DNA of 62,522 nt, from contig MU271454.1 of NCBI GenBank assembly GCA_021432655.1, forward strand, positions 1-62,522, given 5' to 3'. The notes under the pieces are model-generated. The model made no database searches. It was not told where the DNA came from and saw only the letters and a program-made list of their open reading frames with translations. Positions 1,827-19,873 of this stretch are shown here, in pieces. The translations under genes and the position numbers were made by a program. Position 1 is the first letter of the stretch. Each line of letters begins with the position of its first letter. Source of the DNA: Atractiella rhizophila. Lineage: Eukaryota.

Positions 1827-2722
1827 TCTTGAAACGGGTGTGGGGTCTTCACTATGCGCCTATGCTGGTTGTTCTGTTGGTACAGTAGGGTGACGGCTCC
1901 ATGAGGGTGCGATCTTTTGAAGGCCTGATGACTAGGAAGGGACTAAGCACCACTCCATGTAAATACGAGGTTCCCATCATTGGTTTGTCGCCTTGGTCGT
2001 TCTTCTCGTTCACTTCGTCCATAGAATTGCTCGGAATCTTTCGTTCTGCAAGATTGAAGGACGAAGATCAAAGTTAAAAATATTGAATATCGCCAAATGA
2101 ATGACACTATAGGATGACATGTCAGGTGATTAAGGAATGAATACTAATTGAGGACTGATCGAGGGTGATCAATTGATCAATGAGATCATTCAGCAGCACC
2201 AAACATTCACCAAAGCAAAGCTAGACTGACAGGAACATGCATGGGCATGAACGTTGAGGCAAATATACATTTGCCCAACCTAGCTGGTTCCGGTTCCCAC
2301 TTTAGAGCTTCAATCTGTTGGATTTTGCAGTCTAGTTTCGTGCCACTCAGTGGCAAAGTCCTTTAGTTTTCTGGAATGTTCTACTATTTTCTAGTTGTCA
2401 CTGCTGTAAGCTATATAAACACATAGAATTCCATTTCCTGGTGCTCATGCGTTTGCAAGAGCTCAGCCAAACGTAACCAAGTCGTACTTAGCTCCGCTCC
2501 TCAGCCCGTCGATTTCCAACACAATCAGGATCCCATCCCTCTTGCCCTCACCAATTCTGTTGCAAGGCTCTAGAGTGGGAGATGGAAGTGATGGCACGGT
2601 GAGTATTGTACACGTCAACACCTGCTCGATATCGAACTGATCCACCATCGATTTCGCAGCCAGCGTGAGGTCGTGAGACTGGAAATTGCCAGGGTCCTTT
2701 TCCTTTCTTGGGTTGTTAGGGG

Positions 2723-3515
2723 TTGATAGAAAGTTCCAATCAGGTGTATCAGCAGGATCTAAGCGTCATTACAGATGTTTTTTACCGCGATGAAACAGCC
2801 TTGGGACTTTCTTTTTCGCTTGATTTCGGAACGCTGCCGCCTGAGCAACAGCCAAAATTCACCGAGCTCTCCCTCAAAGTCGAATTTAATTGCCTTGACG
2901 AAGTTAAGGCGCCCCTCATCAAGTCCATGTTTCCGTGCAATCTCTCTCCAAATTGGTCAGTGCAAACTTCCTCTTCCTCTGCATGTTTCAAGTTAAAATA
3001 AAAGCAACAATACATGTAGGATCAAGGCAAGGGCAAATCAGAAAGACGAAACGATTGCGTATCCCCGTGAATTCCAGAATCATTTCGGACAGCATCCCAA
3101 AGATTGGATCGCTGAGCGGGGCTCGGGGATGACTGGAATGGGAATTGATACCAACAAAGCAAGCTGGCGTCTCCAAGGTAAACTCACTTGACTTAGCCTA
3201 ACAATAGAAGTACCGACGAAGTTGACAGACAAAAACTTGCGGCTTCCATCCTCTTTTTCCCTAGTCGTTGTTGCGAGGGATCAGACTTGGGATGATTGGA
3301 ACATCAAGATCGACGTTAAAGCAAAGGCTGAGAGGGGCATGTTTTCTTTCTGGGGCCAGCGCAATGTTGCAACTGCAGTACCCTTCCCATCCCCACTACC
3401 AATTCAACAGGAAGATGGCAAGGAGGTGAGGGGCATGTGGGGTGTTGGCTGGACAACAGATTGCAAGAAAATGAGTAGCTGGCTTACAACGAATGATGTT
3501 AAGGGCAGGTGGTGA
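2723..3515 (+). pseudogene. hypothetical beta-rich protein, probably pseudogenised
   Basis: ORFs 2723-3001, 2935-3132 and 3222-3515 read as one protein-like sequence (LSFSLDF..KFTELSLKVEF..IKATIHV..IISDSI..G*LEWELIP..LPSSFSLVVV..IKIDVKAK) with an in-frame TGA at 3130-3132. Confidence 0.35.
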
Positions 3516-3604
3516 TTTGTGGGAAGTATAAGAATGTCACATGACAAATATCATTTCAAAGAAGGAAATATCAAGGAAAACTCAATGTTGGAACCAATGC
3601 CTTG

Positions 3605-3851
3605 CATAGTGAAGTCACTTCCCCCCTCATGTCTAGAATAGACCCAACACCTCCAATACATTCCTCTGCTCTATACCTCAAACTGCCCAAGTTTTGCCTT
3701 GTGCAGGTATCAAACTTGCTCCCCCTTCCACCTTCAAAGGAGTGCCCAGCTTAGTAATGACTTTTCTTTACGAAATTTACGTCTACACTTATGCCATCCC
3801 AGGCTAGTTCCCCTGAGAACAGTCAAAAATTTACTTACTCTGTCACATATG
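3605..3851 (+). mobile_element. decayed gag fragment of an older related Gypsy element (left half of the insertion target)
   Basis: Translates to SIPQTAQVLPCAGIKLAPPSTFKGVPSLVMTFLYEIYVYTYAIPG*FP*EQSKI, matching the intact gag SIPQNAQVSPYAGIRLATPSIFKGVPSSAPTFLREIYVYTSAIPGQFPSEKSKI. Confidence 0.85.
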
Positions 3852-4273
3852 TGTTAGGGCTGACACTATGTGCGGTCGCTGATAGGCGATGCGTCTGTAG
3901 TGGAGATAAACCTAAGTGCATGATATGGCATGGAGACTAACCTGTAGTGGAGATAAACCTAAGAGAATACTCTAAGGTCACCTCCACTACTCTCTGATCT
4001 ATATATACAAGCGGAATAACACTGCCACACTGCCACAGAGCGTGGAGGAGAGCAGATGAAACATGTAAGAGAACTAAAAGGGGAAGTGACAGTGGGATTA
4101 CGCGGAGTTAATAAGAGGAGGTTAGGCACAATGGGCTAAGTGGTGATGTAGGTGCGAATGGGCGAACGGGAGACGCAGTGGCGACGGGCGCCGATTCGCA
4201 GGGAACGCAAATGGGCGATAGGAGACGTAATCCGGCGAACGGGCGCCGATTTGCGTAAGATGCAAACCTGACA
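3852..4273 (-). repeat. 3' LTR (422 bp)
   Basis: TGTTAGGGC...AAACCTGACA; matches 9923-10344 apart from 2 substitutions and two 8-bp indels. Confidence 0.97.
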
Positions 4274-4290
4274 ACACCCCCCAGTTTCTG
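4274..4290 (-). promoter_or_regulatory. polypurine tract (plus-strand primer)
   Basis: Minus strand reads CAGAAACTGGGGGGTGT immediately before the 3' LTR start TGTCAGG. Confidence 0.7.
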
Positions 4291-4810
4291 TGGTGCTTGC
4301 AGTAAGCAGAAACTTCTTCTTCGTAAGGTTTGCCAATTTTGCGAAAAGTGCCTGAAGTACCAGCCGCCGCTCGGGCAGAGATGAAATTTTTGGAGCAAAG
4401 AGACATTGTGTACCTCGCAATTTGAGGAATTTTTCGAAGTTGACCAGGTGTTGTTTTGGTGTAATAAGTGTCCATTCTGCGAAAACGGGCTGGACAACTC
4501 ACCAACAAACCGGTCGCCTAGACCTATGTTCAACAGTGTGACTAGGGATTCACCCAGCGAGGCGTATAGAGGAGTAGGACCTCTTAAAGTGAGGGGGAGG
4601 GGACCTCGCGATTGAGGGCAATTTTCGTAAATGCGAGATTGGTGATGGTGCGAGAACGCAATGAGCATTCGTCTTTGACGGGCGACGAATGGACTCACCA
4701 ACGACCAAGTCGCCGACTTGCCCGTTGAGGAGCAAGTCGGCGCCTTGCCTCGACCTAAGTATCAAAGACTAGGATTTCACCCGGCAAGGCATATAGGGGT
4801 GTTGGACCCC

Positions 4811-7800
4811 TTAAAGTGAGGAAGACCTTTCAGCGTGTTTTCGTTGAAGGTTACGAAAACACGCATTTGGGCGATTTTTGGCGGAGTTTGGTATGGAATC
4901 GGGACGAACTGCAAGAGGGTGTGCAGTGTGATAGTCTTTTATAGCATCCTGGGAATTTTCTAGATCTGTGATGTTGATCCACTCGTCTTCAGATGGTGAA
5001 TACCCTTTGTATCGAACGCAATATTTGAAAACTCTATTTCGGGTACCGAACCATTTTCCATCGACAATTTTCTCCACTTCCCATTCTTCAATTCCATTCA
5101 CCAATTCCGGAGGTGGTTTCGGCAACTGGACTCTGCCCGGGATGTCATCCTCGTTGACTTTTCGTATCAGACCTACATGGAACACTGGATGTATCTTCCA
5201 TGAGGATGGCAACTCAAGTTTAAGGTTGAGGGGACCCAAAACTTGCAAAACGCGAAAAGGGCCATGCCATTTGTCGTCCAACTTCTTGACAGGTCTCGTC
5301 GACTTGATGTTTTTCGCGCTCAACCAGACGAAATCGCCGACATGATATTCGGGCGCCGGTGCGCGTTTTCTGTCATAATGTTTTGCCATGAGATCTGCTG
5401 CTTGCTCGAGTGCTGCTTGTGCTTCCCGGTCGGCGATTTGCATCTTTTCGACGAATTGCGCCGCCGCGGGAACGTCCTCGTCGGAGATGGGTTCGAAGGC
5501 CATGCGGGGATGTTGACCGCAATCGAGCGAAAATGGAGTTACACCCGTCGCCGAACTGACGCGATTGTTGAGCGCAAATTCTGCGTTGGGGAGCCCTTCC
5601 ACCCAATTATCCTGAAGGTGATTGCAGAAAATGCGCAAATATTGCTCAACTTCTTGGTTCATGCGTTCAGTCTGGCCATCACTTTGTGGATGATAGGCTG
5701 TTGATGGTGAGCCTTTGATACCCAATAGGCGAAAAAGCGCAGATGTGAATTTAGACACAAACTCTTTTCCCCGATCCAAAATTGCGACATCGAAAAGTCC
5801 ATGTAGTTTCCATACGTGGTCGCGAAAAAGTCTTGCAAGACCCTCTGCATCCATCGTCGAATGGGTGGGGATGAGATGGGTGCGTTTTGAGAGTTTGTCA
5901 ACTATGACGAAAATCGTGTCGAACCCTCCAGATTCTGGGAGTGGTCCAACCAAGTCCATACTGACAATTTGCCAGCGACGTGTGGGAATGTCATTTGGTT
6001 GCAAAAACCCGACAGGTGGGGAAGGAAAGTTTTTCGTTCTGTGGCAAGTGTGACAGGCGCCGACATATCGGCGAACATAATGCGCCAAACCCGGCCACCA
6101 GTAGTACCTTTTTACGAGAGCCGTCGTCGATTTTACGCCTGGATGACCGGCGATTTGCGAATCGTGCAGGTCTTGCAGTATCGAGCGGCGAATTTCGTCG
6201 TCACGGGGAATGTAGAGTTTTCCGCAAAAATAGACAGCGCCATCGACTTCTTGCCACTCCCGTCGGCGAATTGCGTCGACTGGTTCGTCTAGGATCTCTC
6301 TCAAGGCTTTGACTACTTGTTCTTCTCGTTCAGGTACCTTTTTCACGCGTTCCAGTATACTCAACTCCGACATTTGTCTTGTGAGCGCAACCGCGCTCCC
6401 AGTCGCGTTGATCATGATACGATCCGTGTTGAAAAAACGTTCTGGGAGTAATACTACGTCAAAGTTGTCGCAAGTCGCCGGTTTGTGATCCGGTCGCCGA
6501 CTGAGCGCATCTGGTTTTGCGGAGTTTCGTCCAGGACGGTGTAAAAGAGTGAAGTTGAAAGATGCAAGTTCGGTGATCCAGCGCGCCTGTCGCCGATTCA
6601 ACTTTTGTGGCATTCTGAAATACTCAAGATTTTTGTGATCGGTCAAGATCAGAAGTGGCTCATCAGTACCTTGAAGAAGGTGTCTCCATTCTTGCAGTCC
6701 ACGCATAATCGCGAGCATTTCTTTGTCGTAGGTGTCGTAGTTCCTCTGGGCAGCGTCGAGCGATTTCGACACGAAACCGAGAGGATGAAACTTCCCATCA
6801 GGTTTCATTTGCGACAAAACGGCGCCTGTCGCAAAATTTGACGTGTCGACTTCGAGCAAAAACCGTCCTATTTGTTCGGGATGCGCCAAGACGGGCGCCG
6901 AAGTCATGAGCTGTTTCAAAGCGGCGAACGAACGTTGTTCGTCTACCCCCCAGACCCAGGAAACCTCCTTTTTGGTCAGTTCATATAAAGGTCTTGCGAT
7001 GTGACTAAATCTGTCGCAAAAGCGGCGATAGAAATTAGCGAAACCGAGGAACATTTGGACTTCCTTCATGTTTTTTGGTTCCGGCCAATCCATCACTCCT
7101 GCAACTTTCACTGGATCCGGTTCGATCCCGCTGCTGGAAATGATCAAGCCTAGATACTCCACCTCCTCTTGACACCAAACGCATTTCTGCAAATTTACGT
7201 AAAGTCCATTTTCGCGCAAAATTTGACAAACTTGTCGAACACGTTCCCAATGTTCTTCTTCAGTCTCTGTCGCAATTAGGATGTCGTCGATGTATATGAA
7301 GATGAACGCAGCGGCGATCATCGCGCGAAAAATAGAGTTCAGGAAAGCCTGAAAAGTCGCCGGTGAGTTGCAGAGACCGAAATACATCACCAATGGTTCG
7401 AAAAGTCCGCGATTTGTGCGAAACGCCGCTTTGTGCTCGTCTCCTTCTTTGATGCGACCGTTGTTGAAACCTTTTCTCAGGTCAATCTTGCTAAAAAATT
7501 TCTTACCAGAGACCATGGAGAAGAGGTCAGCTTGGATAGGGAGCGGAGTTTTGTCTTTGATTGTGGCTTCATTCAACTTACGATAGTCGAAAAGGGGACG
7601 AAGTTCGGGTGAGTCTTTTTTGTGTGTAAAAAAGACGGAAGCACCATGTTCACCTGTGCTAGGACGTATACGACCGGCGCTCAGTTCAGCGTCAATGAAT
7701 TGGTCGAGCGCCGCTTGTTCGTCTCTTTTCAAGGGGTAGACGGGACCAGCATATGGTTGAGCTTCTGGTTTGAGGTTGATGGCATGGTCCCACGGTCGTC

Positions 7801-8611
7801 GAGGAGGAAGCGAGGTTTTGGATTTTTCATCGTCGAAAATGTCTGCAAAATCGGCGATTTGCGTCGGTATTTCGACAACGCTTTTTGGTCTCATCGCCGC
7901 TGCGTCTTTCGCCAGTTTCTGCGATTTTGTCATGGCGGCACGTATTGAGGCAGAGGACGATGGAAGTTGGTCTCGTGTGGTAGACACATCAACCGCATTG
8001 CAACTGGTGGGGCAACGAGAGAACTCAACTTTCCCTGATGCCCAGTTAATCTCTGGGTTGTGGTGTCTTAGCCAGTCATGACCCAGAATCATGTCGACTG
8101 TCCCCAACTCCGCCACCGCAAATTGCCAAACTTCGTGATGGGCGGCGATCGAAATGGGTAAATAAGCGACAGAATGGATGGAACCCCCCTGATTGAGGGA
8201 TCCGTCGATATTGTAAACGGGCACTGGGGAAGGGAGTTGAGTGACGGGTAGGTTGTATTCAGAAACGAGTTTTGGAGAAATAAAGGAAGTGGTTGCTCCG
8301 CTATCGACGAGCGCCGATGTGGCGTGTCGGCGATGGGAGTGTGGGTGATGGAAAGCGGTCCTGAGTTTTGTTTTCGAACTGACTAGGGATGCCGTCGTCG
8401 AACGTAAATGGACTTTGTCGTACATTTTTGCGACATCAGCGCATCTTTGTCTCCAAGATGGAAAACGCAATTTTGGAAATGGGGAGTCCTGTTCGGGAGA
8501 AGGGAAATCTGCGCAAAGCGGCGCTTTGTTGGGAGTGATTTTAGATGACGAAAATGAATTGCAAGTCGGCGATGGGGACACTCTTTTCACCCATCGCCGT
8601 CTCAAAAATCC
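4811..8611 (-). CDS. pol: Pol polyprotein (aspartic protease, RT, RNase H, integrase, chromodomain), expressed by -1 frameshift from gag
   Basis: ALVDSGA protease, [10 protein letters not shown] and YIDD RT motifs, VDTS/TDH/DALSR RNase H, H..H..CHTC zinc finger, D(SMD)-D(LDRG)-E(QTER) integrase, GPF, and WEVEKIV..VRYKGY..DEW chromodomain; no internal stops. Confidence 0.97.
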   Translation of the reverse strand, partial: GFLRRRWVKRVSPSPTCNSFSSSKITPNKAPLCADFPSPEQDSPFPKLRFPSWRQRCADVAKMYDKVHLRSTTASLVSSKTKLRTAFHHPHSHRRHATSALVDSGATTSFISPKLVSEYNLPVTQLPSPVPVYNIDGSLNQGGSIHSVAYLPISIAAHHEVWQFAVAELGTVDMILGHDWLRHHNPEINWASGKVEFSRCPTSCNAVDVSTTRDQLPSSSASIRAAMTKSQKLAKDAAAMRPKSVVEIPTQIADFADIFDDEKSKTSLPPRRPWDHAINLKPEAQPYAGPVYPLKRDEQAALDQFIDAELSAGRIRPSTGEHGASVFFTHKKDSPELRPLFDYRKLNEATIKDKTPLPIQADLFSMVSGKKFFSKIDLRKGFNNGRIKEGDEHKAAFRTNRGLFEPLVMYFGLCNSPATFQAFLNSIFRAMIAAAFIFIYIDDILIATETEEEHWERVRQVCQILRENGLYVNLQKCVWCQEEVEYLGLIISSSGIEPDPVKVAGVMDWPEPKNMKEVQMFLGFANFYRRFCDRFSHIARPLYELTKKEVSWVWGVDEQRSFAALKQLMTSAPVLAHPEQIGRFLLEVDTSNFATGAVLSQMKPDGKFHPLGFVSKSLDAAQRNYDTYDKEMLAIMRGLQEWRHLLQGTDEPLLILTDHKNLEYFRMPQKLNRRQARWITELASFNFTLLHRPGRNSAKPDALSRRPDHKPATCDNFDVVLLPERFFNTDRIMINATGSAVALTRQMSELSILERVKKVPEREEQVVKALREILDEPVDAIRRREWQEVDGAVYFCGKLYIPRDDEIRRSILQDLHDSQIAGHPGVKSTTALVKRYYWWPGLAHYVRRYVGACHTCHRTKNFPSPPVGFLQPNDIPTRRWQIVSMDLVGPLPESGGFDTIFVIVDKLSKRTHLIPTHSTMDAEGLARLFRDHVWKLHGLFDVAILDRGKEFVSKFTSALFRLLGIKGSPSTAYHPQSDGQTERMNQEVEQYLRIFCNHLQDNWVEGLPNAEFALNNRVSSATGVTPFSLDCGQHPRMAFEPISDEDVPAAAQFVEKMQIADREAQAALEQAADLMAKHYDRKRAPAPEYHVGDFVWLSAKNIKSTRPVKKLDDKWHGPFRVLQVLGPLNLKLELPSSWKIHPVFHVGLIRKVNEDDIPGRVQLPKPPPELVNGIEEWEVEKIVDGKWFGTRNRVFKYCVRYKGYSPSEDEWINITDLENSQDAIKDYHTAHPLAVRPDSIPNSAKNRPNACFRNLQRKHAERSSSL
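8567..8611 (-). promoter_or_regulatory. programmed -1 ribosomal frameshift signal
   Basis: G GAU UUU slippery heptamer (8611-8605) directly before the gag UGA, 5-nt spacer, then a 10-bp stem CGGCGAUGGG/CCCAUCGCCG (8599-8567); pol lies in the -1 frame. Confidence 0.85.
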
Positions 8612-9879
8612 TCCCCCAGATCCGATGATTGAACGACGCTTGTTTTCGGCGACTGGTCGGCGATTTGCACAGCTTGTCGTTCTTGTTCTACGAGACGAGA
8701 GTCGAAATATTCTCCTTGTGCACGAAGATATTGCTCCTTGCATTCCTTCTCTCTGTGTCCGATCTTTTGGCATCTTCGACAACGGGGCGGTCTGAACTTC
8801 GTTGCGTCCACCTCCATATCGTCAGGGTCTTTGGCTTCATGAGGTTGCGAAGCGGCGATGGGTGACAAAGCGGCGCTCGGTCGGTACAGAGGGGGTCCGT
8901 TGTTGTCCTTCTGTTTCATCGATTTTGGGTGATCTTTCTTTGCTGAAGGTGTATTTTGGGTTCCACTCGTCGCCGATGAGATGCCCCGAAAGAAGCTGGA
9001 ATGCGCAAATTCTTCTGCGTCGATTCGCCGCGTTTTTTCCTTCCACTCTTCAAGCGACTTTGGAAAATCACCCTGTGTCACTTTAAGGTGCAGGGCAGGA
9101 TTGAGGCCCCGTTTGAAGAAAAATGTGAGCGCCTCATCATCAAAGTCTGCCTGATTTGCCAACTCCTCAAACTTGATGATGTAGGACTCTAGGTTGCCCT
9201 TCTGTTGCAGGGAAGACAGTTTCGTTTGCGCAATAAGTTTGTGGTCAGTTTTGCAAAAACGCGATCTGAACTCCGACAAAAATTGCTCCCACGAAATCTG
9301 TTCCTCATTTTCGACAAATCGGCACAGTATCCCAGCGGCGAATTTTTCAGCGTCTCCTTCTTTCATATACGATAGAGTAAAAAAGATTTTCGATTTTTCT
9401 GAAGGGAACTGTCCTGGGATGGCAGACGTGTAGACATAAATTTCGCGAAGGAAGGTCGGCGCCGAGCTAGGCACTCCTTTGAAGATAGAGGGTGTGGCAA
9501 GTCTGATTCCTGCATAAGGCGAAACTTGTGCATTTTGAGGTATAGAGGGAGGAGAGTAAGTTTGGGGTATTGGGTCTGTTCGCGATAAAAAGGGGGAGGT
9601 GGTTCCACTGTCTCTAGGAGGAGGCAGTCTGGAGTCCAGTAATTGTAAAATTCGGTCGTTTGTGTTCTGGACGTCGGACCTCAGTTGCGCAATTTCGTTC
9701 GCATTCTGGGAGGTTTGTGCGTTATGTTGGTTGAAACTTGTTATGAGGTCTTGTTCGAGTTTTTTGAACTGTTTTTCCGTTGTGAGGTGTAGGGTTTGGA
9801 ACATCCTTTCTAAGTGCAAGATGCGTTCTTCGCTCGTTGGCGATTCGCGCGTTTCCATATCTCCCCAAACCTCCGACAT
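8602..9879 (-). CDS. gag: Gag (capsid plus CX2CX4HX4C zinc knuckle)
   Basis: 425-aa ORF with a retrotransposon gag domain (FFTLSYMKEGDA, LQQKGNLESYIIKFEELA), PDDMEVD motif and CRRCQKIGHREKEC knuckle. Confidence 0.95.
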   Translation of the reverse strand: MSEVWGDMETRESPTSEERILHLERMFQTLHLTTEKQFKKLEQDLITSFNQHNAQTSQNANEIAQLRSDVQNTNDRILQLLDSRLPPPRDSGTTSPFLSRTDPIPQTYSPPSIPQNAQVSPYAGIRLATPSIFKGVPSSAPTFLREIYVYTSAIPGQFPSEKSKIFFTLSYMKEGDAEKFAAGILCRFVENEEQISWEQFLSEFRSRFCKTDHKLIAQTKLSSLQQKGNLESYIIKFEELANQADFDDEALTFFFKRGLNPALHLKVTQGDFPKSLEEWKEKTRRIDAEEFAHSSFFRGISSATSGTQNTPSAKKDHPKSMKQKDNNGPPLYRPSAALSPIAASQPHEAKDPDDMEVDATKFRPPRCRRCQKIGHREKECKEQYLRAQGEYFDSRLVEQERQAVQIADQSPKTSVVQSSDLGEDF

Positions 9880-9910
9880 TTTTTAAGTTTGGTTTTCGAA
9901 ATTGAGAGAG

Positions 9911-9920
9911 AGAGTATTCT
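9911..9920 (-). promoter_or_regulatory. self-priming primer binding site (Tf1-type, not tRNA)
   Basis: Minus strand AGAATACTCT lies 2 nt after the 5' LTR and is the exact complement of AGAGTATTCT at 10044-10035, about 30 nt downstream of a TATA box; no TGG/tRNA complement. Confidence 0.85.
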
Positions 9921-9922
9921 TC

Positions 9923-10344
9923 TGTTAGGGCTGACACTATGTGCGGTCGCTGATAGGCGATGCGTCTGTAGTGGAGATAAACCTAAGTGCATGATATGGC
10001 ATGGAGACTAACCTGTAGTGGAGATAAACCTAAGAGAATACTCTAAGGTCACCTCCACTACTCTCTGATCTATATATACAAGCGGAATAACACTGCCACA
10101 GAGCGTGGAGGAGAGCAGATGAAACATGTAAGAGAACTAAAAGGGGAAGTGACAGTGGGATTACGCGGAGTTAATAAGAGGAGGTTAGGCACAATGGGCT
10201 AAGTGGTGATGTAGGTGCGAATGGGCGAACGGGCGAACGGGAGACGCAGTGGCGACGGGCGCCGATTCGCAGGGAACACAAATGGGCGATAGGAGACGTA
10301 ATCCGGCGAACAGGCGCCGATTTGCGTAAGATGCAAACCTGACA
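9923..10344 (-). repeat. 5' LTR (422 bp) with TATA box at 10071-10078
   Basis: Direct repeat of 3852-4273; TATATATA; internal duplication of CTGTAGTGGAGATAAACCTAAG. Confidence 0.97.
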
Positions 10345-10394
10345 ATATGAAGCAAGGAGATGTAGAAAAATTTACCGCTAGAATAGTAGACCGA
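10345..10394 (+). mobile_element. continuation of the decayed target gag (right half)
   Basis: MKQGDVEKFTARIVDR matches gag MKEGDAEKFAAGILCR and continues 3605-3851 across the TSD. Confidence 0.8.
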
Positions 10395-10540
10395 TATTAG
10401 GGCAGACACTAAATGTATGCTCACCAATTGATAGATCTAAGTGGATATCATAACATGATGGGACAAACCTATAGTGAAGATAAACCTAAGAGAATACTCT
10501 AAGGTCATCAACACTACATGTTGATTTATATACATGTCGA
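10395..10540 (-). repeat. diverged LTR (R/U5 end) of a related family
   Basis: TATTAGGGCAGACACTA resembles the LTR end TGTTAGGGCTGACACTA; retains AAACCTAAGAGAATACTCTAAGGTCA and a TATA-like TTTATATAC; the far boundary is not recognisable. Confidence 0.7.
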
Positions 10541-11639
10541 GGGGCACGACCATGAACTGTAAAGTATGATCTATGAACATGTAGAGCAACTAAATCAGGA
10601 AGACAACAAAGGAAATAATCGGATATCCTTATATATAAAGCAAGACAGGTTTTAGCATGACTCAAACACGTACTTTTGAGCACTTCTCTCAACACCCACA
10701 ACAAGCCTGCCAGAAATCTGAGCATACCAGCAGAACATGCGTGTTGGCACCTTGCGAACCGTATACAACAAAGCTTATTTAAAGGACAAAAAATAATTGT
10801 CTTCATGACTGAGTAAAGTGACTGGCTTTGGTACTCGGGACAAGCTTTTTCTCACCTACTCAAAATAACTTGGCAATGTAAAGAGTCTGTGTGATGGTGT
10901 AGTTGGTGGTATGTGGGAATGTGAACCTAATTTGGCTTTTGGTGTTGGTTCAATTCTCTGTTCCCTCACATTTTATCACTCTTGAAGCTGTGGGTTCCTG
11001 TACACAATTTAATAGATGTGCAGTTTCCAAAGAAGTGTTATGAGTACTCAATCACTGATTATCTCTCAGCATGTTCCTAACAGCATAGTCAACCACTTTG
11101 TATTGAAAAACAGCGGAAACTCAATGTGGTCCCTTCAAGGGACGAGGGCTCACCCAACTTGTACGTTATAATATGAGGAACAATATGGAAGGGTGTCAAG
11201 ACAGAAACAGTGAGGATGCAGACCGGCAATATGAATGGATGTCCTGAGCAGCAACCTGTTCGTGGAGCTGCAAAGCGGCAGATAGCACAGGAGGAGGCAA
11301 AACGGCGATTGGTAGGAGCATAGAAGGACAGACTTGCACAGTAGAAAAACGGGTCATGTGACCTAGGTCAGGGCATTTCAGTAATGTATGGGAGCAAGCC
11401 TGCCAACACCCTCCAAATTGCTGACTAGTGTGGGTGAGTCATGGAATTTTGAAGTTAAGGTTTGCGACCGATCATTGTCTAGTGAAATGTATCAGGTCTT
11501 CCATCACTATCATCTTCTTTTCCTCCAAAATGTCTACCAACTCACAACTTTTTGACTTTGTTTCGATGAACAAAGATGGGAAAGAGAGTACGGTTTACTA
11601 GGATGTGCAGAAAGCAAAAGCAGTGAATTTGGACAATTT

Positions 11640-14600
11640 TGACTTCTTGCCATTCTCATCTGTGAATTGAGTCGACTGGTTCATCTAGGATCTCTCTCAA
11701 GGCCTTGACTACTTGTTCTTCCCGTTCAGGCACCTTTTTCACATGTTCCAGTATGCTCAACTCCGACAATTGTCTTGTGAGCACAACCGCGCTCCCAGTC
11801 GCGTTAATGGTGATACGATCCCTGTTGAAAAAACATTCTGGGAGTGTCACTACGTTGAAATTGTCCCAAGTCGCCAGTTTGTGATCCGATCGCCGACTGA
11901 GCCCATCTGGTTTTGTGGAGTTTCGTCCAGGACGATGTAAATCAGCGAAGTTGAAAGATGCAAGTTCAGTGATCCAGCGCACTTGTCGCCGATTCAACTT
12001 TTGTGGCATTCTGAAATACTCAATATTTTTGTGATCGGTAAAGATCAGAAATGGCTCATCAGTATCTTGAAGAAGGTGTCTCCATTCTTGCAGTCCAGCA
12101 TAATTGTGAGCATTTCTTTGTCATAGGTGTCATAGTTCCTCTGGGCAGCCTCGAGCGATTTTGATGTGAAACCGAAGGATGAAACTTCCCATCTGGCTAC
12201 ATTTGTCACAAAACGGTGCCTATTGCGAAATTTGATGCATCACCTTCGAGCAAAAATTGTCCTATCTGTTCGGGATGTGCCAAAACCGGTGCCGAAGTCA
12301 TGAACTGTTTCAAAGCAGGGAACGAACGTTGCTGGTCTACCCCCAGACCCAGGAAACCTCCATTTTGGTCAGTTCATATAAAGGTCTTGCGATGTGACTG
12401 AATCTGTCGCAAAAGCGGCGATAGAAATTAGCGAAACCAAGGAACATTTGGACTTCCTTCATGTTTTTCGGTTCCTCCCAATCCATCACTCCTGCAACCT
12501 TTACTGGTCCGGTTCAATCCCTCTGCTGGTAATGATCAATCCTAGATACTCTACTTCACTTTGACACCAAACACATTTCTGCAAATTAACGTACAGTCCA
12601 TTTTCTCGCAGAATTTGACAAACTTATCAAACACGTTCCCAGTGTTCTTCTTCTGTCTCTGTAGCAATCAGGATATCATTGATGTATATGAAAATGAACG
12701 CAGCGGCGATCATTGCACGAAAAATAGAGTTCAGAAAAGCTTAGAAAGTCGCCGGTAAGTTGCAGAGGCCGAAATACATCACCAGTGGTTCGAAAAGTCC
12801 ACGATTTGTGCGAAATGCCACTTTGTGCTCATCTCCTTCTTTGATTTGAACATTGTTAAAACCTTTCCTCAGATCAATCTTGTTGAAAACCTTCTTACCG
12901 GAGACCATGGAAAAGAGGCCAGCTTGAATGGGGAGTGGGGTCTTGTCTTTGACTGTGGCTTCATTCAGCTTCTGATAGTCAAAAATGGGATGAAGCTTGG
13001 ATGAGTCTTTTTGTATGTGAAAAAGACGGAAGCACCATGTTCTCCTGTACTGCAGCGAATATGACCGGCACTCAGTTCAGTGTCAATGAATTGATCGAGC
13101 GCCGCTTGTTCATGTCTTTTCAAGGGGTAGACAGGACCAGTATATGGTTGAGCTTCTGGTTTAAGGTTGATGGCATGCTCCCAAGGTCGTGGAGGAGGAA
13201 GTGGGATGTTGAATTTTTCATCGTCGAAAATGTCTGCAAAGTTGGCGATTTGCGCCGGTATGGGTCACTCCTTTCACCCATCGCCATTTCAAAAATCTTC
13301 ATCCAGGTCCTATGATTGAGTGACCCTCGTTTTCGGTGACTGGTCGGCGATTTGCGCAGATCGTCGTTCTTGTTCTACGAGACAAGTGTCGAAATACTCT
13401 CCTTGTGCACGAAGGTATTGCTCTTTGCTCATGGACTTCTTGCATTCTTTCTCTCTGTGCCCGATTTTTTGGCATCTTCGACAATGAGGGGGTCTGAATT
13501 TCGTTGCGTCTACCTCCGTGTCATTAGCTTCATGAGGTTGCGAAGCGGCAATTGGCGGCAAAGCCGCGCTCAGTCAGTACAGAGTGGGTCTGCTGTTGTC
13601 CTTCTGTCTCATCGATTTTGAGTAATCTTTCTGTGCTGAAGGGTGTATTTTGGGTCCCCCTCGTCGCCTATGAGATGCTCAGAAAGAAGCTGGAATGCGC
13701 GAATTCTTCCGCATCGATTCCCCACGTTTTTTCCTTCCACTCTTCAAGGGACTTGGGGAAATCACCTTGTATCACCTTAAGGTGTAGGGCAGGATTGAGC
13801 CCTTGTTTGAAGAAAGAATGTGAGTGCCTCATCATCAAAGTCTGCCTGATTGGCCAACTCCTCAAACTTGATGATGTAGGACTCCAGGTTGCCCTTCTGT
13901 TGAAGGGAAGACAGTTTCGTTTATACAATAAGTTTGTGGTCGGTTTTGCAAAAACGCGATCTGAACTCTGACAAAAATTGCTTCCACGAAATCTGTTCCT
14001 CATTTTCAACAAGTCGGCACAGTATCCCAGCTGCGAATTTATCAGCGTCTCCTTCCTTCATATACGACAGAGTAAATACAATTCTCGACCTTTCTGAGGG
14101 GAACTGTCCTGGGATGGCAGACACGTAGACGTAACTTTCGCAAAGAAAAGTCGACGCCAAGCTAGGCAGTCCTTGAAGATAGAGGGTAGGGCAAGTCTGA
14201 TTCCTGCATATGGTGCTACTTAGGCAGTTTGAGGTATAGATGGAGGAGAGTAAGTTTGAGGTGTTGGGCCTGTTCATGATAAAAAGGGAGAGGTGGTTCC
14301 ACTGTCTCTAGGAGGGGGCAGTCAAAATTCGATCGTTTGTGTTTTAGACGTTGGACCTCAGTTGCGCAATTTCGTTCGCATTCTGGGAGGTTTGCGCGTT
14401 TTGTTGGTTGAAACTTGATATAAGGTCTTGTTCGAGTTTTTTGAACTGCTTTTCGGTTGTGAGGTGTAGAGTTTGGAACATCCTTTCTCAGTGATGGATA
14501 TGTTCTTCACTTGCCAGCAATTCGCGCGTTTTCATATCTCCCCAAACCTCCAACATTTTCTAAGCTTGGTGTGTTTTGAAAAGGAAGAGAGAGTATTCTT

Positions 14601-14960
14601 CTGTTAGGGCTGATACTATGTGCGGTCGCCGATAGGCAATGTGTCTGTAGTGGAGATAAACCTAAGAGAATGCTCTAAGGTCACCTCCACTACTCTCCGA
14701 TCTATATATACAAGTGGAATAACACTAACACAGAGCGTAGAGGAGAGCATATGAAACATGTAAGAGAACTAAAAAGGGGAAGTGACAGTGGGATTACGCG
14801 GAGTTAATAGGAGGAGAATAGACACAATTGGGCTAAGTGGTGATGTCGGTGCAAATGGGCAAAGGGCGACCGGGCGCCTATTTGCACGGGAGGCGCAGAG
14901 TGGCAATGGAGATGCGATCCGGCGAATGGGCGCCGATTTGCGTAAGATGCAAACCTGACA
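11640..14960 (-). mobile_element. degenerate truncated copy of the chromovirus (5' LTR, gag, RT-RNase H; protease deleted, integrase missing)
   Basis: Co-linear with ~6246-7868 and ~8575-10344 of the intact element, with many CpG transitions, stops and frameshifts. Confidence 0.93.
14602..14960 (-). repeat. 5' LTR of the degenerate copy
   Basis: TGTTAGGGC...AAACCTGACA; PBS at 14590-14599; carries only one copy of the internal U5 repeat. Confidence 0.9.
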
Positions 14961-15151
14961 CTCAGCTACTGACATCAATGTCAGTGTCCTAGGTCGACTT
15001 TTACTTCTCCCGAGATGAGATCCCAAAGAATTTCTATCATCATTGTCTGAAAGGTACTAGTGGCATTGCAGAGGCCATAGAACATGACCAATTGCTTAAA
15101 GAGGCCCCAATTGGTGAGCAAGGCTGCTTTGTGTTCGTTTTCCTACCTTGA

Positions 15152-15530
15152 TGTCAGGTTTGCATCTTACGCAATCCGGCGAACAGGCGACGCAGCGTCT
15201 CCCATCGCCACTGCGTCTCCCGTTCGCCCATTTGCACCTACATCACCACTTAGCCCAATTGTGCCTAACCTCCTCTTATTAACTCCGCGTAATCCCACTG
15301 TCACTTCCCCTTTTAGTTCTCTTACATGTTTCATCTGCTCTCCTCCACGCTCTGTGGCAGTGTTATTCCGCTTGTATATATAGATCAGAGAGTAGTGGAG
15401 GTGACCTTAGAGTATTCTCTTAGGTTTATCTCCACTACAGGTTAGTCTTCATGTCATATCATGCACTTAGGTTTATCTCCACTACAGACGCATCGCCTAT
15501 CAGCGACCGCACATAGTGTCAGCCCTAACA
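15152..15530 (+). repeat. solo LTR of the same family with 5-bp TSD CTTGA
   Basis: TGTCAGGTTTGC...AGCCCTAACA is the reverse complement of the LTR, flanked by CTTGA at 15147-15151 and 15531-15535. Confidence 0.95.
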
Positions 15531-15599
15531 CTTGATCTTAACATTGTTGGATCCCCAGTGAATGTCAAGCTTGATCTTCTTGCCGCTGATTCGTTTGAT

Positions 15600-16800
15600 G
15601 ACGCCATTGAGGAGAGGAATAGGGTTTCAATTCTTGATGGTCATGTTGAATTAGACTAAGTTCCTTTCCATCCTTCTTTTTCATGAAGAAAACTAGATAT
15701 CTATGCTCTCCCTTCTCATGGTGTATCTTCCTAGTAGCCAGGTTCTTCTCTAAGATCTTATCCAACTCTCATTGCTCGTTCTTAGACATTGGGTACACCT
15801 GACCCTTATAAGCCTCTGCCCCTTCCTTAAGATCAATAGCATAATCCCGCTTCTTCCTCTCTGGGAGTTTATCATATTCCTTCTCATCAAAGACATCCGA
15901 ATATTGTTGCAGCCACTGAGGCGATCCTGTGTAGCCTGCTCTGGGTTCTTGGCCATTGATTCCTGAGCAAGACATTGGGATATTGAGGTTGTGGCAGAGA
16001 ATAAAGGGAGAATGGGTGATTGGGAGTGTGGATATCAACCATAGAGATGAAGTTGTTGAGCCAGGTGGACGTTCAGCTGGGATAGCTTCCTTCCTGAGTT
16101 TTTACATCAACACCGTTGAGTTTTGTCTGGAGAGATCCCCAGGAAGTTGGACATTGGGAACTTGATGCTTCCTTCTCTCCAGTCAATTGAGGGATTGTAA
16201 TTGAATAGCAAGTCGTAACCAAGGATTGTATCTACTGGTCCAAGTTCACGAATTGCAAAGGTCCTCTTCTCTGAATGATCTTTGGTGAGAACATAAAGGT
16301 CAACCATCTTTTCCATAGTGCTACCAGGTTAAGAGCACCATCGATGATATAAACTGGGATCCTCTGGTCCAGCCTGTAAGGTTGAAATTGAGGCGTTTTA
16401 AAGAAATGAGGACTGAGGAAAGATGTGGTTGCTCCAAAGTCAATGAGAGAGGTGATAGTTTCAATGGGACCATTGCTCAGGGATTGGAGTTGGATTTGGA
16501 TCTTCAAGCGATTCTTCATCTTGACTGTGCTAGTTGTATGAATAAATAATGATGTGTCTTGGGAAACAGAATGAGGAGAAATGTTGTAAGGGTGTAGCCA
16601 TTTCCCTGCTCACTATCCAATGAAGCTGAGGCCTGGAAGTGGGCGACAGTAGATTGAATGGCATGTTGGAGGGTGATTTAGGGCAGTTCGTTCTAGTGTG
16701 TCCTTGTTGACCACAGTTGTAGCAGACTATAGGGCTGGCATAACGTGGTATCTTCAAGCGATCAACATCCATTGGAATTGGAGGAGAAGGTCTGGAGGTA
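15600..16800 (-). mobile_element. old Gypsy relic (gag knuckle, protease, start of RT), different family
   Basis: Fragments CYNCGQQGHTRTNC, SLIDFGATTSFLS, ILGYDLLFNYNPSIDWREG, YSDVFDE..LPERKKRDYAIDLKEG, FFMKKKDG, with many stops and frameshifts. Confidence 0.85.
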
Positions 16801-17129
16801 ACAGTAGTATTTGTAGAGGGAGAGAAGAAGACCCAGGCACTGGTTTTGAGTAGTGGTGTGTTTTTATGAGATAGGACAGTGAGTGCTTCTTCCTATTGAG
16901 TTTTGAGATGCTGACACTCTTCTGTTTGTGAGCAATGGGGGATGCTGCCAAGTAAAGTGAACGTCCTAAGGGAACCAATCTGGATATCTCAGTCCAGTGG
17001 TAGGGGTATTTATACACAGACAGCCACAAGTTCCAGAATGTTCTAGCATACTCCACCCTCAATCCTATTTGCTATATGCCTAACAGAATCTTCTAGACCA
17101 TTCACCACATATTCCAGAACATGAGTCAT

Positions 17130-18300
17130 GCTACAAAAGCGAATACCGACAGCTAGGAACAACTTTTGAAGAAGATGTTGAAATTGCAGACTTGTTTGGT
17201 GATACAGGTGTCCCTTTCACGCATTGTTTCCACTGATCTTCCATCATATTTGTGTAGCTCCTGCTTGAAATTAGCAACTTGCGTTCTAAGGTACGGATGA
17301 GCATTTTGGGATTGCTAGTAAATTTGCAACGATCTGTATAATGCCCCAACTTTCTAACGTTTCTGTGCAGACTCCCGTCTTACACTTCAGTCTCATCATA
17401 TCAACATCCATGGCATTTAGGTCCTTTGACAACGAAGAGGATGTCTTGAGTGTTTAAAATTGGTGAATTTTCATGTTGTGCCTGCAAATCGAGAAGGAAA
17501 AGTAATGCCAGGTTGCTGTCTTTGCTTGAAGTCATGATTTCCCATCAGTAAGTCATAATCGATCTCTCTCACTTTTGCTTTCCATCCTGCCAGTGTCTGT
17601 AGTGGGCTGGACCTACTAACTTCAGCAAAAAGGTCAGTGCAAAGTTCTCGATTGAAGCAGTCCAGGAGTTCCTTATCGTTGTAACCGGAATCACACACAT
17701 ACTCATTGAACTCAATGATGAGCTGTTTGATCTTTTGCAACTTCAATTGTTGATAGGTGTAAAGCTTCATTTGTACAAAGCCTTTGCTATCTCCCTTGTG
17801 AAAGACAGTGAAAGTCGGCAACAAAGGTATCAAAGGTTATGTTGACTTGTTTGGCAGATCAGTGGCAAGGTCTGCAAGATATAATTCTGCCCAAGGGCCA
17901 GCAGAGACTCCACGCATGTAGGAAAGTACAAATGTGACTTTGGAAAGTTCGGTTGGGAAGGATCTTAGAACAGAGATGACAACAAGTCTGACTTGGTGGA
18001 TGCACACTTTGGCTTTGCAACTTCTCCACTGAACAGTGCTGGTTCTGCAAGTTTTGGCAAAAAGTTGAAGAAAAAAGTTGGCAAATCATGTATATATTGG
18101 GTGGAGGGTAGGATCAAAGGTGATGTTGACAAAGAGGTTTGTTGTTGCTCAAGCCTTGACTGCCACACTTCGAAATTGGCAATTTTTTGTGTTTGTCGAA
18201 ATATTATTTTGAACACCTTCAATCAAAACTTGTAAAATTTGAAAGGATGAACCTATCTTGCCAAAAAATTTATCAAACATCACTAGCGTTTGTCAATCAC
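17130..18300 (-). mobile_element. old Gypsy gag relic
   Basis: Gag-like IIEFNEYVCDSGYNDKELLDCFNREL...TLAGWKAKVREID and an MDVD motif near 17410; heavily broken. Confidence 0.6.
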
Positions 18301-19328
18301 TTGGGTGAACCCTTTCATAGAGAGGGTTGGTCTCCATTGTTCACCATGGTTGAATCTTGGTCATCGGCTGGTGGGTGATTTGAATGCTAAGGGTTTGGAT
18401 CCAGGAATTCAGAACCAGGGAACGACATGTTTGAGTTTGTTCTTCTGCCAGGGCAGACACAAAGATGATGTCGTGAAGGTAATGTGCTGGGTCACATACT
18501 ACAACACAATGTTCAGCAGACATCCTGAGAGAACAAACTAGGTCTCTTAGGAGCATTGTCCTCCCCTATTGACAAAGGGCTGCACAGTTACAAACTATGA
18601 CTCTGACTCTATCCAAGATAGGATGTAAAGGTCAGATGATATGTAGAGCAAAAGAGATGGTGAAACAGAAATGCAAAAATAAAGCAACATAAACATGAAT
18701 TGAACCTACAACTCTAAATAGACTAAAAATATGTGATCTGGGGCGATCCTGACATCAGTATTGTCCTTGCAGTAGGTGACACGACATGTTCACTGAATCA
18801 GCAATTTATAGAAGTCACATGATTTCGACAAGCCGTCAATTCACATTGTCGTCAACACATTCTATGTCATACTCACCCATGTTTGCGTCCAACTGTTCTT
18901 TGCCTTGAAGTACTGAGCAGCATTTTAAAGAGCCTTCTACCCTCTCTGTCCCTGTATGGTCTTGCCTGTTGCTTATATGGGCTCTTATGCCCTGCCTGCA
19001 TCAGCTCAAGTTTGTTCTGATTACAACCCAGGCCCACAAGTATGTACAATCCTTCTGCACACCCACAGGCATATACCCTACCACTCTGTTTTCATATATC
19101 AATTCACTGTGATACTTACTAAAGGAGCTACCTGCAAACAACGAGGGGGAAGCAGAACCAGAATACGGACCACTACAAATTCACAGTAATAAGGTTTTAT
19201 GTCCACCTGCACACACTAAAGATTACTATATTCACGCCACTAATAGGACAAAACTTGGACATCATCTTCAAAGCAAGATTGTGGCCAAAGAAAACACTGC
19301 CTACCTTCAAGCTGGTATGACAGAAAGA

Positions 19329-19385
19329 TGTCAGATTTGCATCTTATACAAATCGGTGCCCATTCGCCAGATTGCATCCCCTATC
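19329..19385 (+). repeat. short fragment of the chromovirus LTR (U3 end)
   Basis: TGTCAGATTTGCATCTTATACAAATCGGTGCCCATTCGCCAGATTG matches the LTR start with transitions. Confidence 0.75.
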
Positions 19386-19873
19386 AGATTGCAGGATCTC
19401 AATCATCACTGGTCAGAAAGACATCGGAACAAGTGCAATAGATGACCAGATGCTTGAGGTGTTTATATAAAACTTCAAGTAAATTTGACCATATGAGGAA
19501 TACTATATGCAAAAGTGTGAACTCGAACGATCTTTTACTAATATCTCAGCTTTAAAGTCCATTTCCCTTTCTTTTCTTATGAATACACATTGTCTATGTT
19601 GTAAAATTGTATATATAATTAGAAAGGAATCATGCTGCTGCCAGACAAGCTATCTTCCTTTCACCTTGTCCCATTAGTGGGTACTCCACACATACACGTG
19701 GTGCAAATACAGTTTTTGTTTTGTTGGACGTGTTAGCTGTGGACGGGGATGAGGATAGGTTTAGACTACGGTAGTTGTACGTTCGATGTAGCGGACGACG
19801 ATAGGGCTAAGAGAGGTAGGAAGAGAGGTTGACGGGGAGGGATGGAGGTGGAAAAGATGGTCCGCAGAAACCG

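Follow-up and report, generated by a model that had tools for sequence, protein, structure and literature searches.

A duplicated four-way-junction RNA domain in the 3' untranslated region of a chromovirus from Atractiella rhizophila, a candidate cis-acting structure

Does a sequence that occurs twice in the 3' region of a retrotransposon represent a remnant of a duplication, or an RNA structure that has been maintained by selection? This question is raised by a Ty3/gypsy chromovirus on contig MU271454.1 of Atractiella rhizophila (assembly GCA_021432655.1), of which the forward-strand positions 1 to 62,522 were analysed (the window). In the 3' untranslated region (UTR) of this long terminal repeat (LTR) retrotransposon, an initial annotation had noticed a repeated RNA motif of ~85 nt with compensatory base changes and had proposed a selected structure on the sense strand, which is the minus strand of the contig. 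The region was found to be duplicated, to fold into a four-way junction, and to carry pair-preserving substitutions on the sense strand (coordinates in Table 1). The duplicated domain is interpreted here, with moderate confidence and from sequence comparison and folding, as a selected cis-acting RNA structure of the sense transcript, and it probably constitutes a new, lineage-restricted RNA family.

A first line of evidence is the duplication itself. Positions 4540-4594 and 4767-4821 form a direct repeat of 55 nt with 84% identity, and blastn aligned 4516-4594 with 4747-4821 at 77.5% identity over 80 columns (E 2e-10). Similarly, a covariance model built from copy B alone recovered copy A at 41 bits (E 1.4e-9 in the 62.5-kb window), its only other match in the window being the antisense reading of the palindromic H4 hairpin. 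Two imperfect direct copies are thus present where they had first been noticed, and copy B indeed overlaps the pol stop codon (TAA, 4813-4811). Their size had been underestimated: the repeated unit measures ~227 nt, not ~85 nt, and the first unit begins within the last pol codons. Tandem Repeats Finder did not report this ~227-nt duplication, because the copies differ by indels. When the units are compared, the 5' half of the domain aligns gap-free with 43/52 identical positions and the 3' end of the domain has 14/18, as compared with 51 of the 78 aligned columns, with several gaps, in the remainder after the domain. Such higher identity within the domain is consistent with purifying selection acting there. 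The 3' UTR of the element occurs as a single copy in the 62.5-kb window.

A second line of evidence concerns the fold. The 146 nt of domain B and its borders (4825-4680, sense) had a minimum free energy (MFE) of -58.8 kcal/mol, compared with -43.6 ± 4.2 for shuffled sequences (z -3.61; none of 200 shuffles equalled it), and the entire 606-nt UTR was likewise unusually stable (z -4.96; 0/20 shuffles). For the first 200 nt past the stop codon, z was -4.8, whereas the same stretch in 68 distant relatives gave values down to -4.0 with a median of -0.59, 9/68 being below -2 and 2/68 below -3; strong folding at the beginning of the 3' UTR thus does not hold for those relatives in general. Within the boundaries originally drawn around the two copies, the sense folds were of ordinary stability (A, z 0.09; B, z -1.72), and the 10-bp hairpin H4 (4741-4712) and the closing helix CUCACU/GGUGAG (H0) had been missed. 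H4 of domain B is a perfect 10-bp palindrome. H0 was chosen by the MFE fold over the UCAC/GUGA pseudoknot that had been proposed; the two pairings compete, and neither varies, so that no covariation signal is possible for either. The hairpin AGAGG/CCUCU in one copy versus AGGGG/CCCCU in the other, as well as the CCUA/UAGG hairpin, were recovered as claimed in the alignment to the B model. The H5 hairpins of units A and B occupy equivalent relative positions and share the start of their loops, while their stems differ. In addition, the exposed G-rich stretches GGGUGAA and UGGUGAG recur in each unit.

In the window, copy A is damaged: H4 is missing, together with one half of the H2 3' strand, and the deletion junction lies in TCGCC (4514-4518). 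Other copies of the family were available as public contigs aligned to 4200-5000, originating from the runs X1, X3 (soil) and X13 (another organism); in run X10, no contig aligned to this interval. X1 contributed 786 contigs (229 with at least 99% identity, 342 with 95-99%, 170 with 90-95% and 45 below 90%), which reveal a high-copy family in one organism. Immediately after 4518, 30 extra letters and a second TCGCC are found in at least four X1 contigs, in a loose-end group of four X1 reads and in one X13 loose-end contig. On the sense strand, these letters restore a hairpin homologous to H4 with an identical loop, as well as the full 3' strand of H2. It follows that 35 nt, located between two direct repeats of 5 nt, have been deleted from unit A of the window. 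One of the compensatory helices of the initial annotation, CGCCU/AGGCG versus UGCCU/AGGCA, falls on this deletion junction and is out of register: its U-A versus C-G exchange does not involve homologous positions, and the better register for B is GCCUUGCC/GGCAAGGC. At 4564, most other copies have U and not C (12,912 of 18,831 in X1 depth, and the X3 contig). The summed depth of the X1 contigs was ~2,000-14,000 over 4281-4520, 25,000-48,000 over the domains and ~97,000-147,000 over the LTR; many family members may thus differ in, or lack, the stretch from domain A to the polypurine tract (PPT), contig depth being a poor measure of this.

Thirdly, the substitutions between the two units preserve the base pairs. 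Domain B and the full-length unit A differ by 24 substitutions over 117 alignable positions, 18 of which are transitions, and 33 of the 35 pairs are kept (hand count), with five two-sided changes, four one-sided changes compatible with G·U and two broken pairs. H4 accounts for three two-sided changes and three one-sided changes to G·U, without any break among its ten pairs and with an identical loop UCCUCAACGG. H2 contains one two-sided change (U-A to C-G) and one change to U·G, and H1 one two-sided change (G-C to A-U), its loop-closing pair being lost; H3 has lost its loop-side G·U, and H0 is unchanged. When, as a simple null model, 24 random substitutions with a matched transition share were placed on B in 200,000 simulated runs, at least five double changes arose in 76 runs (3.8e-4), two breaks or fewer in a fraction of 0.0055, and both together in 3.5e-5.

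Variants among the other copies add to this comparison. One X13 contig (297 nt, 12 differences) carries 4721T together with 4732A, changing the closing pair of H4 from C-G to U-A, as well as 4836C together with 4861G, changing a pair of Hup from U-A to C-G. This Hup pair is U-A in the window and C-G in nearly all other copies, being near-fixed in X1. Both changes are non-synonymous in pol (Cys to Arg and His to Arg); the RNA fold of Hup may accordingly matter more than the tail of the Pol protein. None of the six differences of a soil contig from X3 (300 nt) falls at a paired position of domain B, and the unit-A H4, read out six times from other copies, keeps 10, 10, 9, 8, 9 and 10 of the ten sense pairs (hand count).

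Several points weigh against a selected structure. The full-length unit A is a composite, assembled by hand from the window and the 30-letter strings of other contigs, and its pairs with B were counted by hand and not by a program, on a structure that had been chosen on B. The variants used are among those listed, and 16 variant rows and 792 pieces beyond them possibly hide helix breakers. Indeed, 4721T occurs in six X1 contigs versus three with 4732A, so that some copies are mismatched, 4856G in X13 makes C·A in Hup, one H4 read-out contains a 2x2 internal loop, and the 3' strand of H2 is altered in one read-out. Since neither H0 nor the GGGUGAA stretch varies, covariation says nothing on either, and no homologue was found outside the family in the collections searched, hence no deep covariation. 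Also, gag and pol are open in the window copy although one domain is damaged; two intact domains are not required for open reading frames (ORFs). The antisense strand folds equally well (z -3.76). Finally, the two copies of the window alone do not covary significantly: two two-sided changes, one one-sided change and two unpaired cells were counted, and 113 of 500 shuffles scored as high, the alignment including, as its third row, the H4 palindrome read in antisense. The selected sense-strand structure first proposed is supported in part, namely by the fold of domain B (z -3.61), the 33/35 kept pairs and the five double changes (P 3.8e-4), and not by covariation within the window.

The same region could also have arisen by neutral tandem duplication through slippage, the palindromes being made or kept by template switching of DNA polymerase or reverse transcriptase (RT) and not by selection. 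The 35-nt loss between two TCGCC direct repeats is a typical slippage product, and the perfect palindrome of H4 in domain B, the equally stable antisense fold and the lack of significant covariation in the window alone all agree with such an origin. According to PMC8794818, hairpins that seem to show compensatory changes can arise and persist through template switching. Moreover, tandem repeats are common in the UTRs of plant LTR retrotransposons (PMC7004042), and the tandem duplication between pol and LTR resembles them. The plant arrays are treated as hypervariable DNA and as satellite seeds, whereas here a repeated fold has been kept by compensatory change. Copying of one hairpin arm into the other would not be expected to produce the three G·U pairs of the unit-A H4. 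In addition, compensation occurs in three separate helices, including H2 with its strands ~40 nt apart, as well as in Hup; the loops are conserved while the stems change, and the domain is better conserved than the remainder of the unit. Neutral duplication is therefore considered an unlikely explanation, and selection on the RNA structure is preferred.

Which strand carries the structure can be judged from the one-sided differences. In each of the four fixed one-sided differences between B and A, a G·U pair of the sense strand corresponds to an A·C mismatch on the antisense strand, and because such changes pair as G·U only on the former, the sense strand is preferred; the sense genomic RNA is thus the better candidate, as far as base pairing can tell. 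Likewise, the three G·U pairs of the unit-A H4 become A·C mismatches on the antisense strand (hand count), whereas the polymorphisms among copies split evenly between the strands and are uninformative. A DNA-level or antisense element, be it an antisense promoter, an antisense transcript structure or a protein-binding repeat, would accommodate the antisense fold (z -3.76) and the variants 4721T alone and 4856G, which are wobble-compatible on the antisense strand only. It would leave the four fixed differences and the three G·U pairs as mismatches, and the region contains no antisense ORF of at least 100 amino acids (aa), which makes an element of this kind very unlikely.

The sense strand also contains a stop-free frame of 217 codons (4761->4108) that runs over domain A and half of domain B and could represent a third coding frame. 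A frame of this length is rare in mononucleotide shuffles (a fraction of 0.001 of 2000), but it matched no Pfam family, and no homologue was found among 5.8 billion proteins in the range of 52-168 aa. Furthermore, all three sense frames are open over 4136-4498, which points to composition, and the frame runs through the PPT into the LTR, reads the two domains in different frames (spacing 227) and is interrupted in some other copies by 1-nt indels at 4423, 4429, 4439 and 4446. Coding is thus hardly credible as an explanation of the domains.

The RNA fold was then compared with known families. A cmscan search with the 4227 families of Rfam 15, on both strands of 3800-10400 and 4460-4880 and with E up to 10, returned only noise of 11-18 bits in the domain, compared with gathering scores of 50-90. 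This agrees with the earlier failure to fit the motif to known ribozymes, as none of the models for hammerhead, HDV-like, twister, pistol, hatchet, hairpin and VS ribozymes matched, nor did those for the exonuclease-resistant RNAs (xrRNAs) and dumbbells. A self-cleaving RNA, which had been left as an option, loses its footing with this result. Ribozymes are known in other retroelement classes, and an unclassified one that processes the 3' region of the transcript might look like this compact multi-helix junction with its invariant single-stranded GGGUGAA and UCCUCAACGG. No ribozyme model matched either strand, however, and cleavage between pol and the PPT or 3' LTR would remove sequence needed for reverse transcription, so that a ribozyme is extremely improbable. 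A tRNA-like structure was rejected as well: ARAGORN found no tRNA genes in 3800-10400, and the helices measure 6, 6, 8 and 10 bp, with an insert of 33 nt in one arm.

Relatives of the element did not carry the domain either. A metagenome scan with the last 284 residues of Pol gave 570 relatives; the 80 loci analysed among them were all 35-43% identical, and closer relatives may lie among the others. Viral contigs gave one locus at 37%. The 3' regions of these 80 metagenome loci had no nucleotide similarity to the UTR (best E 0.21 for 16 nt), and the B-domain model found nothing credible in 406,014 bases of the relatives (best match 13.9 bits, E 0.4, on the wrong strand); no homologue was thus present in these 81 distant loci. 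Motif pattern scans gave no matches in viral contigs and none in prokaryote genome contigs. The closest full-length Pol in the protein collection was 48% identical over the last 284 residues (54 matches). In the data searched, the domain is confined to this retrotransposon family.

The ends of the domains invite a comparison with splicing signals. GGUGAGU (4699-4693 and 4503-4497, minus strand), which ends each domain, resembles a 5' splice site under a loose eukaryotic consensus, and CUCAC...AAG at the start of each unit resembles a branch site followed by a 3' splice site, both motifs being invariant between the units. A small intron or a U1-binding site could accordingly be marked here. Yet, AAG is a poor 3' site, retrotransposition of a spliced RNA would leave intron-less copies, and none of the three joints listed among the 786 X1 contigs removes 4697-4587 or a GU..AG interval; nor would splicing explain the covariation in H1, H2 and H4. 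This explanation is judged very improbable. A signal for stop-codon readthrough, composed of the stop codon and H1, was rejected too, as the frame beyond the stop is closed again after 13 codons. An element protecting against nonsense-mediated mRNA decay (NMD), of the kind of the RNA stability element (RSE) of Rous sarcoma virus (RSV), is less apt, since the exposed stop codon in a gag-pol frameshift element is that of gag.

To consider what a selected structure could do, the properties of the host element have to be taken into account. The order of protease, RT, RNase H and integrase with a C-terminal chromodomain, the CCHC knuckle of Gag and the flanking LTRs identify it as a Ty3/gypsy chromovirus. 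Indeed, Pol matched the Pfam families RVP_2, RVT_1, RT_RNaseH, Integrase_H2C2, rve, SH3_Tf2-1 and Chromo, and the two LTRs are 95.8% identical over 431 columns. A tRNA-type TGG primer site is absent after the 5' LTR. Instead, the sequence adjoining the LTR (9911-9920, minus strand, AGAAUACUCU) is complementary to AGAGUAUUCU inside the LTR (10035-10044), which lies ~30 nt downstream of a UAUAUAUA box, the 10-nt match covering the presumed transcript start of the LTR. This complementarity looks like self-priming of the Tf1 type. The chromodomain integrase, the Tf2-type SH3 domain and the LTR-adjacent 10-nt self-complementarity without a TGG primer site are all features shared with these chromoviruses. 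We know of no comparable 3' UTR domain in Tf1/Tf2, and a literature search found none described for these elements or for the host group. The 5' leader is short: ~120 nt of LTR lie downstream of the presumed start, followed by 43 nt up to the gag ATG.

The two domains (4820-4694 and 4593-4498) lie in sense orientation between the pol stop codon and the PPT/LTR (~4289/4274), which is the position of 3' cis elements. The element owes its two domains to the ~227-nt tandem duplication in its 3' UTR, and in the window copy the downstream domain has lost 35 nt (H4 and half of H2). As a mechanism, it is proposed that each domain would act in cis as a protein-binding signal deciding the fate of the full-length RNA, and two copies would raise avidity. 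The first choice for such a protein, advanced tentatively, is the element's own Gag with its single CCHC knuckle, recognition serving packaging or dimerisation. This choice is preferred because the self-priming structure occupies the short 5' leader, because no splicing forces the signal to the 5' end, and because exposed G-rich stretches recur per unit. Complementarity between the 5' leader (10045-9860) and the domains was no better than in shuffles (fractions 0.49 and 0.20), RNAduplex being weak on long inputs. A more doubtful second choice, by analogy, would be an export or stability element of the kind of the RSV direct repeats (DRs) or the constitutive transport element (CTE).

A structured cis element in the 3' region of a retroelement, even in two copies, is known in itself; the present fold fits no described family. 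Cis-acting RNA signals have been characterised for few LTR retrotransposon models (Ty1, Ty3 and retroviruses), and to our knowledge almost nothing is known of them in the chromoviruses of fungi and protists. Junction folds that are duplicated in the 3' UTR, with helices kept by covariation, occur in the flavivirus xrRNAs and dumbbells. The tandem arrangement of compact junction-type folds in the 3' UTR is similar here, whereas the flavivirus folds are three-way junctions with pseudoknots in RNA-virus genomes, and their Rfam models had no match. The CTE, in turn, is likewise a folded cis-acting element, located downstream of the last gene and ahead of the 3' LTR; it offers two equivalent binding sites on one long stem with two internal loops, whereas the domain of the chromovirus is a four-way junction that occurs twice. 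The CTE recruits a host export factor (PMC3856414). An intron-less retrotransposon RNA is less in need of bypassing splicing-linked retention. Also comparable are DR1 and DR2 of RSV, likewise direct repeats of ~100 nt in the 3' part of the genomic RNA. These cis-acting repeats are reported to influence the accumulation of RNA in the cytoplasm as well as its stability and packaging, and a single copy is enough in strains without src (PMC3856414). Differences are that no sequence or model similarity exists, that the host is a chromovirus of a soil eukaryote and not an avian retrovirus, and that the repeats are adjacent, derived from one tandem duplication, whereas those of RSV flank an acquired gene.

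It is conceivable, at somewhat less than an even chance, that the domain is the founding member of a class of retrotransposon signals, namely a stop-anchored four-way junction of self-priming chromoviruses that would be bound by Gag or a host factor and would supply packaging, dimerisation or export, a role for which retroviruses use the 5' leader or DR/CTE elements, with duplication as a dosage device comparable to that of the RSV DRs and flavivirus xrRNAs. In a bolder variant, CUCAC(U) would pair alternatively with GGGUGAA (in H2) or with GGUGAG (after H4), and these mutually exclusive partners would make the domain a conformational switch. If functional, the domain would be a compact target for studying the selection or export of genomic RNA in a self-priming chromovirus, since compensatory variants of two helices and a deletion variant already exist in nature, and it would add a new family to the RNA catalogues. 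If non-functional, it would exemplify how two-copy covariation can mislead, one of the two compensatory pairs having fallen on a deletion junction.

Table 1. Positions of the RNA domains, their helices and the surrounding retrotransposon features in the window
Feature	Position	Strand	Description or basis
Domain B	4694..4820	minus	intact four-way junction, ~127 nt; MFE fold, pair check, covariation
Domain B, H0	4820-4815 with 4699-4694	minus	closing helix CUCACU/GGUGAG, 6 bp; MFE fold
Domain B, H1	4811-4806 with 4800-4795	minus	hairpin, 5-6 bp; MFE fold
Domain B, H2	4790-4783 with 4749-4742	minus	8 bp, GCCUUGCC/GGCAAGGC; MFE fold
Domain B, H3	4773-4769 with 4758-4754	minus	inside H2, next to invariant GGGUGAA; MFE fold
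Domain B, H4	4741-4732 with 4721-4712	minus	10 bp, conserved 10-nt loop UCCUCAACGG; directly abuts H2
Domain A	4498..4593	minus	damaged; 41-bit model match, 35 model positions deleted
Domain A, H0	4593-4588 with 4503-4498	minus	present
Domain A, H1	4584-4580 with 4572-4568	minus	present
Domain A, H2, 5' strand	4563-4556	minus	present
Domain A, H3	4546-4543 with 4526-4523	minus	present
Whole tandem duplication	4385..4840	minus	about two ~227-nt units; unit B 4840->4607, unit A 4613->~4385
Hup	4864-4854 with 4843-4833	minus	11-bp hairpin in last pol codons; folding
H5 of unit B	4666..4691	minus	8 bp, CAUUCGUC/GACGAAUG, loop starts GCCCGU; folding
H5 of unit A	4469..4496	minus	6 bp, UGUCCA/UGGACA, loop starts GCCCGU; folding
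Ty3/gypsy chromovirus (host element)	3852..10345	minus	LTR pair, ORFs, Pfam domains
5' LTR	10345-9923	minus	repeat search
gag	9879-8602	minus	425 aa; Retrotrans_gag, Ty3 capsid, one zf-CCHC knuckle
pol	8782-4811	minus	1323 aa; protease, RT, RNase H, integrase, Tf2-type SH3, chromodomain
pol stop codon TAA	4813-4811	minus	between H0 5' strand and hairpin H1 of domain B
3' UTR	4810-~4275	minus	from pol stop to PPT
PPT	4277..4289	minus	AGAAACUGGGGGG, just 5' of 3' LTR, marks 3' UTR end; from sequence
3' LTR	4274-3852	minus	repeat search

Some further features of the element and its surroundings were recorded. The gag and pol genes overlap over 8602-8821, with pol in the -1 frame, and no canonical X XXY YYZ slippery heptamer in the gag frame was found within this overlap. 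Both LTRs contain a long imperfect hairpin, GUAGUGGAG...CUCCACUAC (10015-10061 and 3944-3990), around the presumed self-primer, and its Rfam match was miRNA-like noise only (18 bits). The neighbouring region 10346-19400 is a nest of related elements. It includes a second related element at ~11620-14960, which is 83-89% identical and lacks the 3' part, an inverted solo LTR (15201-15531, 96%), LTR scraps (15149-15181 and 19329-19385) and more distant gypsy fragments (15008-18013). On the other side of the chromovirus, an inverted gag fragment occupies 3608-3851.

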